A stretch of DNA of 60,627 nt, filler included, from Sphacelaria rigidula (Eukaryota), in the NCBI GenBank assembly GCA_964200075.2. It is 7 parts of 7 records of this genome, joined end to end, with 100 filler letters (N's around TTAATTAATTAA, not from the genome) between each part and the next. Parts side by side here need not be neighbours in the genome. Positions count along the whole stretch, not along the records: positions 43,379 to 51,953 come from CAXNAA020010733.1; 6 more parts are not named here. The stretch is one strand, 5' to 3'. The position numbers were made by a program, and so were the translations under genes. Within the stretch, counting starts at the first letter, position 1. Every line of letters begins with the position of its first letter. Shown piece after piece: positions 43,379 through 51,953 of the stretch. A model generated the notes under the pieces. That model saw only the letters and a program-made list of their open reading frames with translations, was not told the origin of the DNA and did not search any database.

Positions 43379-45895
43379 CTCATCTCGATTTACGTGGAGA
43401 TTTTGCCTCCCAAAACCATGCACTTTTGGGGGGGGCTATCGTAGAAAGTGTCAGTTCTTGTCTTGATATACCTGGTATGCTTGTAGTTATGGCTGTCCCT
43501 CGAGAGGCCGCAACGTGGAATGTTACATTTCTTAGTTCTTCAGTTCTTTGGGTGGCGGTATTTGGGGCCCTGAGTCTCGCCCGTAGTCGGACCCTGTGTT
43601 CATTTCTACTTTGTCGGGCGTCGAGTTGGAAAACCGAGTGCCACCCCCTGAGGTCCGACTGGCCACCTGCGGCACCGGATCTTTTGAGGTTACCCATATG
43701 CATTCTCTTCCTTCTTTATTATTAATTTCTGTTTTGCTTGTATCGCGTTTCGAGAGCTTTAATTTGGATCTAGTTTGTTTTCTCGTGTTTTCGCTAGCCT
43801 GTGACCACGGAAGGTGTCCGTATCAGATGCCCAGTACGAATGTACCGCGCAGATGTCGGAACGGTTTTTACCATCAAGACAACAAGACAACAACAATTGG
43901 CCTTCGTCCTACCTGACCCGGCTGGTGCGCCTACAAATACCGAATCATGTAGACCGTCGTCCAGAATAGATGGGATGACAACACATGCGACAGGCTAATC
44001 TTTTGCTGGTATACAGCTCAACCGCGCATCTTCTTCATATACAGGATTCCCTCCCCACGAAAGATACCGTGATTTACATAATGTTCAACTTTCGTCATGA
44101 TGTGCACACAACCCCAACTGAGTAATCCACCCGTTTTCCTGTTTGGGCCGGCCTGATCACGTTTTGTGGCACATCCGAACCCATAGAAAATTGTGGATAT
44201 TGAAGTTGTACTGTGCTTGTGTTGGGCTCCGCTCGTTGGTGTCAATGAAGACACAAGGTTCGACTGTTTTGTTGTTTGAGCACTGAACGATGTTCACTTT
44301 CTGCAGGTGGATCGAACCGCACTTGTAGGATGAGGTGATAGATCCGCTTGAGTGTGGCTCGCAGTTCTTTCGAACAAGTGAAACCACTTCCGAGTATCGC
44401 CATGAGATGTGTCTCCACCTCATCCATTTTGGACGTTTGTCGGCACCTCTCGGTAATGTATACGCCCATCACTCGGGATCACAACAAACGACCTGTTTAG
44501 TTTCAGTTCTAGCTCTCCCCCTTCGATTAGGGGCGATTTCGTCAACGCTCTTCGCGAGAGGAGTCCCTTTCCTGCATGTCTTTAGCTCGTCCACCGTCGG
44601 GTCGAATTCGAGTACTCACGACATCCTCCACTATTTTTGAGAGGGACATGAGAAAAAATTTCGCATCATGTGGCTCCACCGATATTATAACTCACGGCTC
44701 AACCGTCATGTAAGGATCCGAGGTAATCCAACGAGCTCCTTATTCAGCATGAGCACAAAATGGCACGAGGAGTGGCCAGACGGGCCCCGAGCAAAGACTG
44801 TCCATGACCCTGACTTCGTTGGGCACCATCAAGCCTATGGATATTGCGGGATCATCAGTTTAGGAAATGATGCAAATAGGATTACGCTGTTCAGCTGTGG
44901 GGGTCGTGTTGTCCAAGATAGTCTGAAATCATGTATTGAGAATAAAACAGGTTGAAGAAGCAGGCACTCTGAGCGCGCTACGAGGCATACGGTGCTGGTC
45001 AACTGCTCCTGCCAACATCAGACACCGTTTTGCTTTCAGGCGCAATAAAGGGACCAGCCTGTGAGATCAAAGTCATACATCGGCTGATGAACATGGGACC
45101 ACGCCCGAGCATACTTGATAATTTGCTTCAGAAGGCCCGTGAAAATGCTTGGACGACTACAGAGGCCGGACTAGTATGTTACACCTGCAGTGTTCATCTT
45201 CTCGTTTCAGCCTGTCAAGTGGCCATCATCCATCAACGGATAAAAGTAGCTCATCGTTGCCCAGGACCATGTTCCTACGACACGATGACTGTACATACTT
45301 GATGGTGTCAGGTATGAAACTGTACATGTGTGGTTGCCATCGCCGAAGAGCTGATGAGTTCGAAGTTATGTCGATTTTTTCTTTATTTTCGATTTTTTTC
45401 TTCTCCGTTGCCTCGCTGGTGGTGTCGTATCTGTCCCCCCCCCCCCCCCCCCCCCCCCCCCACCCAAACACACCCCCTCTCCCCACCACTCTTTTCATCT
45501 TCTTCCTCCTCTNNNNNNNNNNTCGAAGTTTTTTTTTTTTTTTTTTTTTTTTCGTTTTTTTTCTTCTCCCTTGCCCCGCTGGGGGGGTCGTTTCTCTCCC
45601 CCCCCCCCCCCCCGCCAGAAATTACAGAACAACCAGCTATTTCCCGTCACATCTTTTCACGCTTCCTGTCCTGTTGCAGTATTGTCCAAACACCAAGAGG
45701 ACGAATAGCACGAAACATATGTAGAAGACACCCGCACAGGCAGAAAACTGCAAGCGCGCGAAGGAACGATCCACAGCCCCCAACACTTGTGCCGACTTCC
45801 CAAAAATAGGACTTCGACGGCGTGTTGCATGGTCATCCTCCAGCATTTTGCTGTTTCGCAGGTGTGGGACGTCCTCTCCGGGGGACCAGCGCCTT

Positions 45896-45994
45896 CTAGT
45901 AGAAGAAGCCCAGGATCTTGCCACCGGTGTGCTTGCGGCGTGCCTCTTCGTGGTCCATGATACCGAATGTGGTGGTCAAAACAATGTGTCCGAA
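45896..45994 (-). CDS. RPS15A: 40S ribosomal protein S15a (uS8), coding exon 4
   Basis: ccgcag|TTC. Encodes [32 protein letters not shown]. Confidence 0.97.
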
Positions 45995-46603
45995 CTGCGG
46001 GGAGAAGAGAGGAAAGGGTAAAGGAGGGAAGACCGGAGTACCGGAGGTTTGACGAATACCGTCGATCACTGCAGTGATCATAACATCGAAAGAGAGAGAG
46101 CGAATGTACTCGAGGAGAGGGGAAAGCCCCGTGAGGTCGAAAAAGGGAAATAACCAATTTTACACGGGTTTCGAAAGGATGGGCCGAGTTTGCCGTTTCA
46201 ATGTCCTGTTCGGTGTTTGTAGGATCCCGTCGCTTTACAGGGTCCCTTACCGTTCGAGAACCCAAGAAGCCGGTTGACCCCGATGCCTTCTCCAGGAACA
46301 CGTGTTTATGCGTTCACGTCTTCCCTTCTGAGAACAGCGGCATGAATTAAATACCTACCCGGGAATTCCCTGCATACTTCACTCACCCTGTACTGGAATA
46401 TGCCTGCCCCTTTCCAGTCGAATGACCAGCCGATCAAGGACTCGAGACTCTCCTTTTTAGGGCAAAGGGCCCTTTTATATACAGTAAATTTTCGTTGTTT
46501 CACCATAAGCTCAAAAACTAGATACTTGGTTTACGAAAAAGTGAGGTCAGAGCAACTGTGAGCAAGCAGAAAGGGAAACGAGGAGAAATTGCCGAAATGT
46601 CAA

Positions 46604-46704
46604 CCGGGACATCAGTTCTTTTTCGTGAGGGTGCGTTCATGGGGTCATTTTGACCTTCAAACAAGAGGTGTCAGATCTCTGTTGAGCATCGTCATTTGTC
46701 CCGG
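46604..46704 (-). ncRNA. snoR1: Intronic box C/D snoRNA, snoR1/snR48-like (copy A, intron 3)
   Basis: 8-bp terminal stem ccgggaca/tgtcccgg, C box ATGACGA and D box CTGA in K-turn register. Guide TCTGACACCTCTTGT before D' TTGA is complementary to LSU rRNA CAAGAGGUGUCAGA. Confidence 0.85.
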
Positions 46705-47841
46705 CGTATCTACTCTCCACACTACCGTGGTGCAATGTCAGTCGTCGGCCTCATCAGTGTCGATCAAATGGGGAAAAAATGATACTATCGGCGTGAACTC
46801 CGGAGAGGCACTGCCATTGGGAAAATTTCACGAAAAACCAGACGGGCTTGTCCTCGAGGGAATTCTTCAGTCCCTTCCAAAAGTAATTTCCGTCTCACGT
46901 AAGAGAAATGCTACAGAAGCCCTGGCGCAGAACCAGCCCCAATCCGGTCGAGAAGAAAGGCCGTACAGCGCATGATGGTTTCATTTCGAATGAGGTGCCC
47001 CTTGTGGGCGACATCGGTGAAGACGATCCCAAGCATGGAAATTCCCAGCTGCCAAGTGTGCTCGGCTTTCGTTATTTCGATTCATGGGTTGATTTTGCCA
47101 CCTGAATCAGCCACATCCCTGGAGGGCCATCACCGCATCAGATGGAAATCCCTGAAGTGTGTGTTCACATGCGGAATGTTGCAACACGTTTCTGGTTTCC
47201 GAGATCCAATGTTTTCAGGAGTACGGGGAAAAACCCTTCGGTTACTCAAGTTTTCTCAGGGATGTGCTCAAGGCCGATCACAACAGCGAAGAAAAAAATC
47301 GCCGTCGCCGCGCCATAGTAACCCCTACTTATCGATGAATCCGCTACAAGTTTACTCAAGACATATTACATGTAATATTCGAATGCGGCGAAGGTGGGGA
47401 GTTCGAACGTCACTCTGTGCTGTTCCTCGGATTTTAGCACTTTTCCAGCAGCACGTGCACGATTCATTAGTCATCGAGATCATGGGAGTACCAAGAGCAA
47501 AGTTACAGAGGCAAGTGTAGTACAGGGTGTGTGAGTGCTATCGCCATGAAACAGTCGGAATCGAGAAGGGGAGGGGGGGCACTGGCTATATGACGGAAAG
47601 AGAAGCAAGCGCTCTTTGCCGCGTTGTGATTTTTCACGTCTTATAGCGAAGGCTCAGACGTTCTGTGACGACCCCTTTATTGGAGATTTATCCGACAGAG
47701 GGCATCGAATATTTTTTTTCAAGACAGTGATGGCCTTCTCGAGACACACGAAGGATCAAAGCGTATAAGAGCATGAATCCAAGGCGACCTCTGCAGCAGC
47801 TGATGAGCAAACGAGCGATAGGCACACGTCCCTCTACTCAC

Positions 47842-47943
47842 CCCACGCGCGGGCAGCAAGTTGTTCACCCATTTCTCCACATCCTGAAGAGGCATGTCGA
47901 ACCGCGGCGAGATAACTCCACACTTGTTGATGCGTCCGGTCAG
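47842..47943 (-). CDS. RPS15A: 40S ribosomal protein S15a, coding exon 3
   Basis: aatag|CTG...GGG|gtgagt. Encodes [34 protein letters not shown]. Not in the ORF track. Confidence 0.97.
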
Positions 47944-48369
47944 CTATTATCGTGTTGACGAAAACATCGGGAGGACAAAATGGTGTGGGGGAAGCAACGA
48001 GTAGGCTTGGCATGGCGAATAAAAGCTAAGGGCGAGGCGGGTGAGATGCGCATACGAGGCAAATTCAAGATCCGGGGAATACCAACCTGAAATAATTTTT
48101 CGAAAAGGACTCGCAATGTATCCGCGGTCGAGCATGAGCTTCTAGTTGCCATGTCTCTTGTCTGAAACCCAGTAAGCTTGGAGAAGAGAAGAGGGGGGAA
48201 TACGACACGACTAATTACAGAGCTTTGAACCCTTGCCTGTTTCACAATTTTCGTATCCCAACCTTTTTCGTGTTTCTTCCCCTCACACTTCGAACCCCTC
48301 CCCTTTCTCGGGATGAGTCCGTGGTCTCGAGGGATCAGCCCATCTTCCTCGCGGTACGTGCCTTTCATT

Positions 48370-48585
48370 TTGTTCTCGCGGACTGGGTCAGCAATCCCGC
48401 ACCGCGTCAACTCGCGTCACACAAACCCGGTCGACGAGTTTGTTTACTCGGTGCGGGATACTCACGCTTTCAACGGTTGAAATCATATAACTACGAAAGA
48501 AAAACCCAATGCATGCACCGGGAATCGAACCCCGTTCATTCAACCCTAATGAAAACAGGCGGATCATTACACCACCGGCGTGTAG
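48370..48585 (-). mobile_element. tRNA-like-headed SINE/pseudo-tRNA in RPS15A intron 2
   Basis: Minus strand has an A box GGTGGTGTAATG and a T-arm/B box GGGGTTCGATTCCCGGTGCATGCA (head ~48510-48583). The anticodon arm is not canonical and the 3' extent is approximate. Confidence 0.5.
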
Positions 48586-49456
48586 GTTGTGGGAACATGG
48601 AAGCAATTACCTCGTATTCGGCAACAGTTGGTGACTGCGCACCGCGGGAGAACAGAAAAAGTGCGCATGTACAAGACCACAACGTTGAATGTCCCCTGCT
48701 ATTCTTGGCTGGTTTTCAACCCACGCTCGAGCCAAATTCTCTCCGCAAACACTGAGGAGACAGCATGAGAAACAGCATGCATGATCGAATACGTGATGCA
48801 CAAGCTCAACACCTCCCGACACGTCCGTTACCACGATCGTGTGCGTCCCGACACGATCTCCGAACACGTTGAATGACATGAAAGTGCGTTCGTTCAGTTT
48901 TTGACGTTGTAGTCAACGTGCCCTGGACGATATATTGCCTCGTGAAAAAATGTACTGCGCACAGTATGGAATCTATCGTCTAATGAACCAAACGCCATAG
49001 TCGATACTGTACGCAGCACACTCGTTGACCGTGTCAATTTTCGTTGTACAGGGTGTGCTAGATTCATGGATGGTTGGTCAGTTTCCTAATACTGAATGAA
49101 ACCCAGGAGCATGTTTGATTGTGGCCACGCTCAGTTCAACATACATGGTAGCGGCGTGTACGTACCATCAAATTGGATTATATTCGGAAGCGGATGGTCA
49201 CAATCACACTGTTTCCCAAAAGCAGCAAACACTGGAGTACGTCCTTGCACGTTTGAGAAATCCTGGGGTTGATTGAACCTTCCCTCGTGCGATGAACTGC
49301 ACCCCTGCAGTGTGTATGTTTACATGGCACTCGCTGTCTTTGAGGCGTCCTCGGAAAAGGTTTGACAAAGAAAATGTGTCGCACGGAAACTCGCCATACC
49401 GTTAGCATTGGTCGTGATCTAGTCCTGCCGGGGTGTCGCACCATCATTTATCTCAC

Positions 49457-49515
49457 CTCAACAACGATTTTGCCCGCGCGGTGATCGTCGACAATCTCGA
49501 ATTCTCCGATGTAAC
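49457..49515 (-). CDS. RPS15A: 40S ribosomal protein S15a, coding exon 2
   Basis: gtag|GT TAC...GAG|gtgaga. Encodes (G)YIGEFEIVDDHRAGKIVVE. Confidence 0.97.
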
Positions 49516-50012
49516 CTACCGCGCGAAAAAAACGAGACAAATAGTTTACGAGGGTTGTCGTAGGCAAGACAATTTGAAAACCACCACAACGCAAGACGTG
49601 TGTATTAGAGGCCTCGAGTTTCATGGGGGCAGAGACGCTGTTCGACCATACACCCAACAGCCCGAACATCAACCGCACAACCTTGTGCATGGGAACGAAA
49701 CAGCAAACACTGATCATGAGTGTGTTTCCGTATCCAGCGCTACCCACGTCACCGAGTGCAAAAAACTTCCGCGCCGAGACGGTTACAACATTAAAATCAC
49801 CATCCGGACTTTCATGTGAAGATGTGGGATGATCGAGGTGTCTCATCCCTCTTGGACATCATCACCAGTGTTCTCCCTGTTTCACTACATCTGATACGTA
49901 CAGCATATAATCGACTCTAGAAAAAAGGCGGGAGGAGCGGATACTGCTACAACAGCCACTTCAATATCGACCAACACAACTCGTATCATCGGCCGCAACA
50001 GCAGTCTCTCCT

Positions 50013-50110
50013 GGGACATCGGTTCCTTAGTCGTAAGGGTGCGTTCATTGGGTCGTTTTGACCTTCAAACAAGAGGTGTCAGATCTCTGTTGAGCATCGT
50101 CACTTGTCCC
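50013..50110 (-). ncRNA. snoR1: Intronic box C/D snoRNA, snoR1/snR48-like (copy B, intron 1)
   Basis: Stem gggaca/tgtccc, C box GTGACGA, variant D box CCGA, and guides identical to copy A. Confidence 0.8.
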
Positions 50111-50767
50111 GGATTGCGCTTTCATCAGAAAATTGTAACCCTCAACTCCAACTGCTACGTATCACGCTCGCGTCAAAGGGTTAGGGTTGGGGTTTGCGTC
50201 AAACACATGGCAGACCCACCCTTCCCTTGCAGAGGTAACACACGACGCCGACATTGTACCCCGCGAACTGGGAAAAAGATTCAAGGACAAGACCAAGTAT
50301 TACCGCGTGGCAGCCGTCTGTCAGCGACCACGGTGGACAGTCGGTGAGTCCTGAACAGACATGCGGAGGATATCTTTCGCTATTTGTGACCGTTTGGCAC
50401 AGAAGAATGCTTTCAACACTTCCGACAGTGCCAGTAGGAACAGTACTATCCACGAACAACTAAAGCATTTTTCCGGCAACATGTTTTTTTTATCGTTGCC
50501 AAGGCGAGACTCCACGAGATTTTCCTACTTCGACACAACGTCATCAAATTTCCGGTGAGCATCATCACATGATGGAGATGTGCTGATTCTTCTTCTACTC
50601 CTGACAAACGTAGTGGATAATTTTCCTGTGCTTCGATTTCTACCACATCTGGATCCTGCCCATGGACACGAACTCGTACTCGACCGCCGGAAACATCAAC
50701 AGTCCGAACGAAACATCGCGAGATGGTATCCATGTTAATTCGGTTCAAAATAAAAACACCAATTAGT

Positions 50768-50869
50768 CTGGGACATCAGTTCCTTATTCGAAAAGGTGCG
50801 TTCATAGGGTCGTTTTGACCTTCAAACAAGAGGTGTCAGGTCTCTGTTGAGCATCGTCATTTGTCCCAG
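50768..50869 (-). ncRNA. snoR1: Intronic box C/D snoRNA, snoR1/snR48-like (copy C, intron 1)
   Basis: Stem ctgggaca/tgtcccag (compensatory change relative to copy A), C box ATGACGA, D box CTGA, guide CTGACACCTCTTGT-TTGA. Confidence 0.85.
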
Positions 50870-51045
50870 GAAACCAACAACTTCATATCGAACAGTCAAT
50901 GTGTGGACTTGTCCACGGGTTTTATATATGCTAGAGCTCATCCTACCCCGTCCGCCTCCGGCTGATCAGTAAAACCAGATGCACATACGATGCTGTCGCA
51001 CGGCAACACAAGACGCCATGAACAAGAAGAAACATCTGCCCTCAC

Positions 51046-51178
51046 CGTTCTTCTGCATAACCTGCAGGAACTTCACCACGACCTTCGAGCATGGCCGGAT
51101 GAGCACTTGTCGCTTCCCTCGCTTCTCAGCGTTAGCGATGGTCTTGAGGGTGTCGGCGAGTACGCTCATTCGCACCAT
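51046..51178 (-). CDS. RPS15A: 40S ribosomal protein S15a, coding exon 1
   Basis: [45 protein letters not shown]|gtgag. The four exons total 393 nt = 130 aa + stop. The ATG follows an acceptor directly (aatag|ATG); a likely 5'UTR intron is 51179-51325. Confidence 0.97.
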
Positions 51179-51953
51179 CTATTTCATCGGGCAAGCGAGC
51201 GTGGCCGCGAACAAGATGAGGCGAAAGGAAGACGGTGTGGGGTCTGAGAAGACAGGGTGGCCGAGACGGAGAGCTCATTTTCAAGATTACATTAGATGCG
51301 AGGCTCAGTTGGACATTCAACATACGGTGACAGCTGAGTGAGGAGCGAAGCAGAGGAGGCGAGTTATCTCCTGGAATGGTGTTGAAAATAAAAAAACAGC
51401 GGGATATTCCAGGGCAAGGGTACCTCTGGGCAACATTTGATCCGACTTTTTGTTTAGAACGATTGAATCGTCTGCTCGGCAAGTTTCATGTGTAGTGCGC
51501 TTTGGGGTTCACCTCCCGAGCCCCAGGGTGGGCAGCCCGTTTTACCCAGCGTCTCGTTCACCTGAAAATTCACGGGACCCAGGTGAGTCATCCTGGCGAT
51601 GACGGGGCTTGCCCTCGACTGTGAGATAGAGAATTGGAGTCCGAGTTTACGACCATCGCTTCGTGTGGTGATTGTCATGAACGATTGCGTCATGATACCA
51701 TCAAGGTCTCAAACGTCTCGTGGTCGGGACGTACGACCGAAATTGGGGGACGAGATGCCACTGAGTACAACAGTATCAAAAAGAGTTTGTTCTTACAGTC
51801 GGAACGTATACTGCAGCTTGCTCGGGATGTGCCAATAGTGACTCCCGCACGTCTTATTTACCGACCACAAAATCCTCAGATTCATCCTACGATAGAGGGG
51901 GGGTATTTGGTTGCACGAAAAAAGAGGCTCATAAGTGCGTCATATATCCTTCT

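Follow-up and report, generated by a model that had tools for sequence, protein, structure and literature searches.

Three probable intron-encoded box C/D snoRNA genes of the SnoR1/snR48 guide type in RPS15A of Sphacelaria rigidula, and their additional complementarity to helix 74 of the LSU rRNA

The stretch of DNA analyzed here (the window, 60,627 nt including filler) consists of seven parts of the Sphacelaria rigidula genome (assembly GCA_964200075.2) joined end to end, of which positions 43,379 to 51,953 come from record CAXNAA020010733.1. This part holds, on the minus strand, a four-exon gene for the ribosomal protein RPS15A/uS8, and introns 1 and 3 of this gene contain three sequences of 101-102 nt, called A, B, and C in the following, with the layout of box C/D small nucleolar RNAs (snoRNAs). 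Very probably, they are paralogous intron-encoded snoRNA genes, counterparts of SnoR1 and snR48, which guide the methylation of the G in the large subunit (LSU) rRNA that is equivalent to G2791/G2792. The gene anatomy, the position within the introns, the identity of the guide, and two separate complementarities to eukaryotic LSU rRNA are directly observed; the second of these complementarities belongs to a 9-mer located between the C box and the guide, and its partner is the 5′ strand of a helix taken here as helix 74 (H74). The features of the locus are the following.

45896-51178, minus strand: host gene RPS15A/uS8, four exons
51046-51178, 49457-49515, 47842-47943, and 45896-45994, minus strand: RPS15A exons 1-4, in this order
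49516-51045, minus strand: RPS15A intron 1 (1530 nt), GT..AG
47944-49456, minus strand: RPS15A intron 2 (1513 nt), GT..AG
45995-47841, minus strand: RPS15A intron 3 (1847 nt), GT..AG
46604-46704, minus strand: snoRNA copy A, 101 nt, in RPS15A intron 3, intact
46697-46704 with 46604-46611, minus strand: terminal stem of copy A
46689-46695, minus strand: C box of copy A, AUGACGA
46679-46687, minus strand: 9-mer of copy A, GCUCAACAG, within the spacer from the C box to the guide
46661-46675, minus strand: D′ guide of copy A, UCUGACACCUCUUGU, position 5 from D′ opposite the target G
46657-46660, minus strand: D′ box of copy A, UUGA
46612-46615, minus strand: D box of copy A, CUGA
50011-50112, minus strand: snoRNA copy B, 102 nt, in RPS15A intron 1, D box CCGA, C:A mismatch in the stem
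50069-50083 and 50087-50095, minus strand: guide and 9-mer of copy B, both the same as in copy A
50768-50869, minus strand: snoRNA copy C, 102 nt, in RPS15A intron 1, intact
50827-50839 and 50844-50852, minus strand: guide core and 9-mer of copy C

The translation of the four RPS15A exons comprises 130 amino acids. In a Pfam search covering exons 1, 3, and 4, the Ribosomal_S8 family is matched by exons 1 and 4, with 25.7 and 28.9 bits, respectively (cut-off 24), and exon 3 has no match. Exon joints that skip 1847, 1513, and 1530 nt exactly at the predicted borders are found in contigs of the sequencing runs X4 (RNA-like, same organism), X10 (RNA-like, from another organism, B), and X12. The depth of X4 exceeds 22,000 over the exons and is 3-7 over most of the introns, being higher only over repeat-rich bins, and this contrast, together with the splice joints, shows that the run holds spliced transcripts. 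A contig of X8, which is a DNA run from a close relative, has 19 differences from the window, all of them outside 46552-46677; copy A is free of substitutions, with 46604-46677 identical, but since the intron divergence is ~2.4%, only 2-3 differences would be expected there and the identity says little. In X10, where the RPS15A exons are ~13-15% different, a depth of 4.8 is seen in the 46574-46754 bin, which includes copy A, and none in the neighboring intron bins; the sequence in this bin may be the orthologous snoRNA of organism B.

The three copies have one layout. It starts with an 8-bp terminal stem, the C box (A/G)UGACGA, and a 14-nt spacer, UGCUCAACAGAGA(U/C), continues with the guide CUGACACCUCUUGU, the D′ box UUGA, a hairpin of 4-5 bp (GGUC...GACC), and a C′-like AUGAACG, and ends with a variable stretch of 18-19 nt, the D box (CUGA, or CCGA in B), and the 3′ strand of the stem. 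In the three-row alignment, pairing of the stem and the hairpin is present in 35 of 36 cells. At pair 20-119 of the terminal stem, A has C-G, C has U-A, and B has C:A, which shows that the compensatory change is real and that B represents its unpaired intermediate, the copies together displaying a three-state series from C-G through C:A to U-A. A and C possess the C box, the D box, and the terminal stem of a box C/D snoRNA, while B fails in this respect and is probably decaying, because of its CCGA in place of the D box and its stem mismatch. In C, a C replaces the U on the 5′ side of the guide, and one guide pair is thereby lost.

The variation is unevenly spread over the alignment. Variable columns amount to 1 of 14 in the spacer, 0 of 14 in the guide, 0 of 4 in D′, 1 of 14 in the hairpin, and 1 of 9 in the C′ region, compared to 6 of 19 in the D-proximal stretch and 18 of 18 and 10 of 14 in the flanks. 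Any two copies differ in 8-10 of ~102 columns, mostly within the D-proximal stretch. These counts, together with the stem pairs discussed above, bear out the initial annotation, which was made from the DNA sequence and described three ~100-nt copies sense to RPS15A with a compensatory change in the terminal stem between A and C and an invariant block next to a drifting D-proximal region; the invariance is found to span from the C box to C′, and thus extends beyond the 9-mer. For the D-proximal stretch, a search of partial LSU fragments gave no target site common to the three copies, and as this stretch also drifts between them, it is most likely a non-guiding spacer.

The guide places these RNAs in a known family. 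Over 15 nt, the window shows no difference from the consensus guide of Rfam snoR1, UCUGACACCUCUUGU followed by (A)UGA, and the place relative to the C box is the same. Judged by sequence, namely by the guide, D′, the hairpin, and C′, these RNAs fall into one functional group with SnoR1, snR48, and SNORD60 (U60), although they fail the Rfam snoR1 score test (see below). Human SNORD60 is here presumed to be the vertebrate counterpart, guiding 28S Gm4340.

Further members were collected from metagenome contigs, which were scanned with an 18-nt pattern composed of the guide and D′; at least 133 matches at no fewer than 120 loci were obtained, and all orthologue counts given here and below are among the matches listed. 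Most of these show a C box, a spacer of 7-25 nt, the guide, WUGA, a hairpin, a C′-like motif UGA(A/G)C, and a D box. Downstream of D′, 91 of 108 distinct flank pairs contain the UGA(A/G)C motif, which in 40 of the 108 is part of UGAACG, as in the window. A recognizable C box is absent in 14 of 89 distinct upstream contexts, some of which are chance matches or members of a repeat family. RPS15A exons were not found beside the metagenome snoRNAs by tblastn at the at least 120 loci listed, a result made uninformative by flanks of at most 400 nt. Viral contigs were also scanned and gave one locus with the 18-nt pattern and two with a pattern of the 9-mer and the guide, but none has C/D features and they were discarded as chance matches.

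The target was analyzed on the Rfam LSU_rRNA_eukarya consensus with its structure line and on three LSU fragments from other eukaryotes, L172, L184, and L167, which are contaminants of prokaryote assemblies. A target-like motif downstream is present in four of 93 loci (the fourth is L159), and the three fragments are confirmed by Rfam as LSU_rRNA_eukarya, with 593-1016 bits. With these foreign fragments and with the consensus, the guide forms 12 Watson-Crick pairs to the eukaryotic LSU AGAGGUGUCAGA, with an energy of -22.7 kcal/mol. The Rfam consensus at the target reads ...gaagcuagAGGUGUCAGAAAAGUUACCAcAGGGAUA, the paired part being agAGGUGUCAGA, and beyond the 12-bp duplex a U:U mismatch is followed by two more pairs that adjoin D′. 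According to the 5-nt rule, position 5 from UUGA is opposite the first G of cuaGAG. The hairpin with cuaGAG at its 3′ end is helix 88 in PMC5389607, where yeast snR48 is reported to guide G2791 and G2793, two nucleotides apart, and Arabidopsis SnoR1 targets G2792, the equivalent of yeast G2791 (PMC8053127). The box C/D assignment with a snoR1/snR48 guide and the D′-5 target proposed in the initial annotation are thus in line with the C/D boxes, the stem, the 15-nt identity to the consensus, and a 12-bp duplex that puts the first G of cuaGAG at the guided position.

The target stretch itself varies among eukaryotes, being GGUGCCAG in L184 and GGUGACAG in L167. A duplex search with the whole block prefers a look-alike, AAGAGGUGUAG, ~340 nt upstream in L172, which was rejected since it is not conserved in the Rfam consensus.

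In the proposed mechanism, the copies would be released from the spliced RPS15A introns, and the 12-bp guide duplex would put fibrillarin on the G five positions from D′, which is the first G of cuaGAG, where helix 88 ends on its 3′ side. Expression, processing, and methylation are what we infer from the gene structure and the pairing.

A number of observations weigh against this assignment and should be considered together. Rfam has no match in the window at the gathering level, and the permissive scans below the gathering score give at best 24.8 bits for snoZ101 (copy A; gathering score 44) and 18.9 bits for snoR1 (gathering score 49), the three copies scoring 18.9 (B), 16.7 (A), and 13.7 bits with snoR1, all below 49. 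The Rfam comparison suggested in the initial annotation therefore holds for the guide and D′, which equal the snoR1 consensus over 15 nt, but not for the scores. The C box UGACGA has one deviation, C for U, from UGAUGA, a variant that is present in several orthologues as well. In X4, the only RNA-like run from the same organism, the depth over the bins with the copies is at the intron level, 3.7-6.4, in contigs of a probably poly(A)-type library that cannot reveal a small RNA either way. Finally, that the first G of cuaGAG is yeast 2791 is our assumption, made from the 5-nt rule and a presumed numbering. The broken D box and stem of copy B could, in addition, indicate that a retroposed snoRNA left these copies as relics (pseudogenes) without expression. 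This is quite improbable, considering that the compensatory stem change keeps copy C intact, that variation is saturated in the flanks but absent from the functional parts, and that all three copies lie within introns and sense to a highly expressed host.

The second complementarity concerns the spacer of these putative snoRNAs. All nine bases of the 9-mer GCUCAACAG find their complement in LSU CUGUUGAGC, which appears as CUgUUGAGC in the Rfam eukaryotic consensus. In the consensus structure, CCUg-UGAGCUU pairs with AAGUU--CAcAGG, forming a helix that we take to be H74 of the E. coli numbering. The 3′ strand of this helix starts 2 nt after the guide duplex, and in L172, L184, and L167 the 5′ strand precedes the target by 379-382 nt. 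The consensus structure hence supports the earlier claim that the 9-mer is complementary to the 5′ strand of H74, the partner of which lies just 3′ of the target.

The energy of the 9-bp duplex is -14.7 to -15.9 kcal/mol, to be compared with a bimolecular estimate of -14.1 kcal/mol for H74 itself. Shuffled spacers reach the energy of the 9-bp duplex in 0.2% of the cases with the 26-nt H74 segment and in 0.5% with the 522-nt domain V fragment, and for the 10-nt core the shuffles give P 0.0005. Scaled to the whole rRNA of ~5.5 kb, some 9-mer match is expected in ~5-11% of such spacers. It is the location, and not the length alone, that makes the match notable. Compared with what is expected of an accessory guide (4-11 bp, apart from D/D′), the element has a suitable length and place, with 9 bp between the C box and the guide, but it lacks adjacency to the target: its partner is ~380 nt upstream and is near only as the helix partner of the strand beside the guide duplex.

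For the comparative analysis of the 9-mer, 72 distinct spacers between the C box and the guide are available among the matches listed, in addition to the two of the window, all of them from distant orthologues. None of the 72 holds any 7-mer of the 9-mer, and a 6-mer is found in one, L030/L075. The best complementarity to the 522-nt fragment is overall equal to the shuffled expectation; 9 nt or more is reached by 3 of 74 spacers, two of these being the window's own, where 0.84 would be expected. With the H74 segment, 4 of 72 spacers have P<0.05 (~3.6 expected) and 2 of 72 reach -10 kcal/mol. The sequence comparison thus indicates that the H74 pairing is not a trait of the whole family, as it is absent from 71 of the 72 spacers listed and no enrichment is seen. 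In a set that is otherwise very distant, L030/L075 is the relative with the greatest similarity to the window when both halves are considered. With a single bulged A, its spacer, GCUCAAACAG / GUGCUCAAACAG, still forms the full set of nine pairs (-10.9 kcal/mol, P 0.026); such a close resemblance of the spacer occurs in 2% of shuffled sets, and neither the hairpin nor the 3′ half of this relative is related to that of the window. The likewise similar spacer of L015 shares only ACAGAGAU, the GCUCA half being lost.

It is conceivable, and we put it forward tentatively, that the snoRNA is a bipartite guide, in which the 9-mer binds the H74 5′ strand while the guide binds the 3′ end of helix 88 and the linker. 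Such pairing could join rRNA segments ~380 nt apart, strengthen the short 12-bp duplex, and hold H74 open until the small nucleolar ribonucleoprotein (snoRNP) is removed, and it would add to the methylation function rather than replace it. The nine pairs are perfect and as strong as the estimate for H74, the shuffles give P 0.002-0.005 (0.0005 for the 10-nt core), and the relative L030/L075 retains the nine pairs despite its different hairpin and 3′ half. Furthermore, the paralogues look old, with unalignable flanks, and the constraint on the spacer (1 of 14 columns variable) equals that on the guide, compared to 6 of 19 in the D-proximal stretch; also, snR48 is among the 13 yeast snoRNAs with conserved extra complementarity (PMC3116282). 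Against this stand the 71 of 72 spacers without the 9-mer pairing, the chance level at which the spacers complement the H74 strand and the 522-nt fragment, and the published accessory elements, which pair directly beside the target and not ~380 nt away (PMC3116282). The hairpin, which is wholly different in other lineages, is moreover as invariant (1 of 14) as the spacer, suggesting gene conversion or recent copying of the 5′ part, and 5-11% of spacers are expected to match somewhere in the ~5.5-kb rRNA. Compensation for a short guide was abandoned as an argument for the 9-mer, since an extension of the guide by 0-1 pairs is not unusual, occurring in 20 of the 72 spacers listed as it does in the window.

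These same points make it narrowly probable that the 9-mer matches by chance in a neutral spacer and is identical among the copies because the 5′ two-thirds of the gene underwent copying or gene conversion. Such an origin agrees with the lack of conservation and enrichment across the family, with a hairpin as invariant as the spacer, and with the look-elsewhere effect when the whole rRNA is considered. It is less easily reconciled with a P of 0.002-0.005 inside the very domain that holds the target, with a site that is the helix partner of the strand adjoining the guide duplex, and with the retention of the pairing in the L030-type relative; gene conversion would also, in each of the three copies, have to end just short of the D-proximal stretch. 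Overall, we lean toward regarding the 9-mer as a lineage-specific by-product, while its use as an accessory pairing, inferred from complementarity, is a candidate lineage-restricted trait to which we give less than even weight. A more specific version, which we consider unlikely, is that the lineage comprising the window organism and the L030 type evolved a two-site guide with arms 3 nt apart, one directing the methylation of the G at the end of helix 88 and the other sequestering the H74 5′ strand. The snoRNP would then be both a methylation guide and a placeholder, delaying the closure of a helix at the base of the peptidyl-transferase center until its removal by a helicase, and the accessory guide would work by proximity in the secondary structure instead of adjacency in the sequence.

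The initial annotation also raised the possibility that the CUGA inside the guide is a second D′ box, with the 9-mer guiding methylation of the C in CUGUUGAGC. The distance of 14 nt from the C box is indeed a spacing that a guide could use. However, the sequence of the rRNA target, GGUGUCAG, enforces this CUGA, which moreover belongs to the search pattern behind all of the at least 133 orthologue matches, and its conservation therefore carries no information. In addition, position 5 would fall on the end pair of the 9-bp duplex, and positions 2 and 4 would be mismatched; positions 1-4 (AGAU) would face rRNA GACC, where only G:U and G-C are possible; and a second C′ partner is lacking. A role of CUGA as an alternative D′ box is thus exceedingly improbable and was rejected.

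The assignment of the three copies as SnoR1/snR48 counterparts can be put in perspective by comparison with the published systems. With plant SnoR1 (RF00345, clan CL00066), the window RNAs share the D′ guide and D′ over 15 nt (UCUGACACCUCUUGU, then WUGA), the D′-hairpin-C′ layout that is also seen in the metagenome orthologues, and the predicted target, which is Arabidopsis 25S G2792 and possibly also G2794 (PMC8053127). They differ from it in the C box UGACGA, in the unrelated spacer, hairpin, and D-proximal stretch, and in lacking the plant-type second conserved stretch AUGCAAC.C.CUGA, which many metagenome loci contain. Yeast snR48 likewise has a D′ guide to Gm2791 (and Gm2793) in helix 88 of domain V, but its D′ is described as an unusual 6-nt AUGUUA with no CUGA-like box (PMC5389607), in contrast to UUGA in the window.

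Extra pairing between snoRNA and rRNA has been published before, snR48 being one of the 13 yeast snoRNAs that have it (PMC3116282, van Nues et al. 2011). The accessory elements described there are 4-11 nt long, separate from D/D′, occasionally located between the guide and the C box, and able to stimulate methylation. The window 9-mer resembles them in length and place; it differs in that its partner is distant, ~380 nt upstream, whereas the extra pairing of snR48 is described as lying directly beside the target (PMC3116282), and in that it is kept in only 1 of the 72 orthologue spacers listed. With regard to the placeholder mechanism, a precedent exists in snR190, which shields distant 25S strands at the root of domain V. 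This RNA has two antisense elements to distant 25S regions, one of them at the domain V root (H73), and was proposed to shield sequences until their partners are available, the chaperone role having been shown genetically (PMC8536666). It differs from the window RNA in performing no methylation and in having longer elements (15 nt for box B), and what is compared with the chaperone on the side of the window RNA is the pairing potential read from the sequence.

For routine annotation, the locus adds an intron-encoded SnoR1/snR48 orthologue to a poorly annotated algal lineage. In the literature searched, brown-algal snoRNAs are represented only by computational predictions in Ectocarpus (PMC4513859). 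If the 9-mer is used, the idea of extra base-pairing would extend to elements directed at the partner strand in a helix close by, and a modification snoRNA would time the folding of a helix of the peptidyl-transferase center.

Several minor observations concern the spacers and H74. In L005, L020, L035, L046, L088, and L115, the conserved spacer motif (U/A)ACUG is complementary to the conserved UCAGUA loop, which precedes the target by ~60 nt (the match is 9 nt long in L035), and in L008, L037, and L050 the plant-type UGCUUU is complementary to GAAAGCA, which precedes it by ~40 nt (7 nt long in both L037 and L050). These motifs may be lineage-specific extra pairing elements; overall, the lengths match those of shuffles. 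L010, L033, L042, L043, L051, L082, L111, and L117 form one lineage with the spacer ACCGGUAAUUUU, which by eye, with one bulged rRNA G, extends the guide duplex into GUUACC of the H74 3′ strand, opposite the strand of the window 9-mer. The spacer of the copies also contains ACAGAGA (46676-46682 in A, with equivalents in B and C), of which L015 shares ACAGAGAU; it has the letters and the sense of what we take to be the ACAGAGA box of U6 small nuclear RNA, and no function is inferred from it. By our presumed numbering, G2410 and U2411 of Arabidopsis, 382 nt before G2792, would be the GU of CUGUUGAGC, and the letters fit. If this holds, the H74 5′ strand would be a regular snoRNP substrate in plants. 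Gm2410 and Um2411 of Arabidopsis 25S rRNA are assigned to the D′ guide of SnoR29 (PMC8053127).

Next to the copies, two other motifs were noted. A canonical CUGAUGA is located at 50120-50132 on the minus strand, 14 nt upstream of the stem of copy B; it is absent beside A and C and probably a chance occurrence, and with the guide-internal CUGA it gives weak SNORD49/sR2-like matches. Just upstream of copy A, a SNORD12-like match at 46700-46804 on the minus strand (20.6 bits vs 43), which includes a UUUUUUCCCCAU stretch, is not credible, and the stretch is probably no gene because X8 has substitutions inside it, at 46710, 46735, and 46802.

Within RPS15A intron 2, 48203-48564 and 48927-49107 are very high-copy repeats with many loose ends and internal joints, their summed contig depths being 436,379 and 48,870 in X8 and 21,748 and 4,349 in X4, respectively. 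At ~48510-48590 on the minus strand there is a tRNA-like T-arm motif, where ARAGORN reports no tRNA, and the repeat around it may be a SINE-like (short interspersed nuclear element) sequence. The segment 48946-49025 is a long inverted repeat with weak Rfam matches to mir-471 (24.1 bits vs 80) and mir-242 (19.7 vs 54); lying in a repeated region, it is probably part of a transposable element. Finally, a run of N (assembly gap) is found at ~45400-45560 between long homopurine/homopyrimidine tracts, and it appears as XXXX in poly-P and poly-K/F reading frames.

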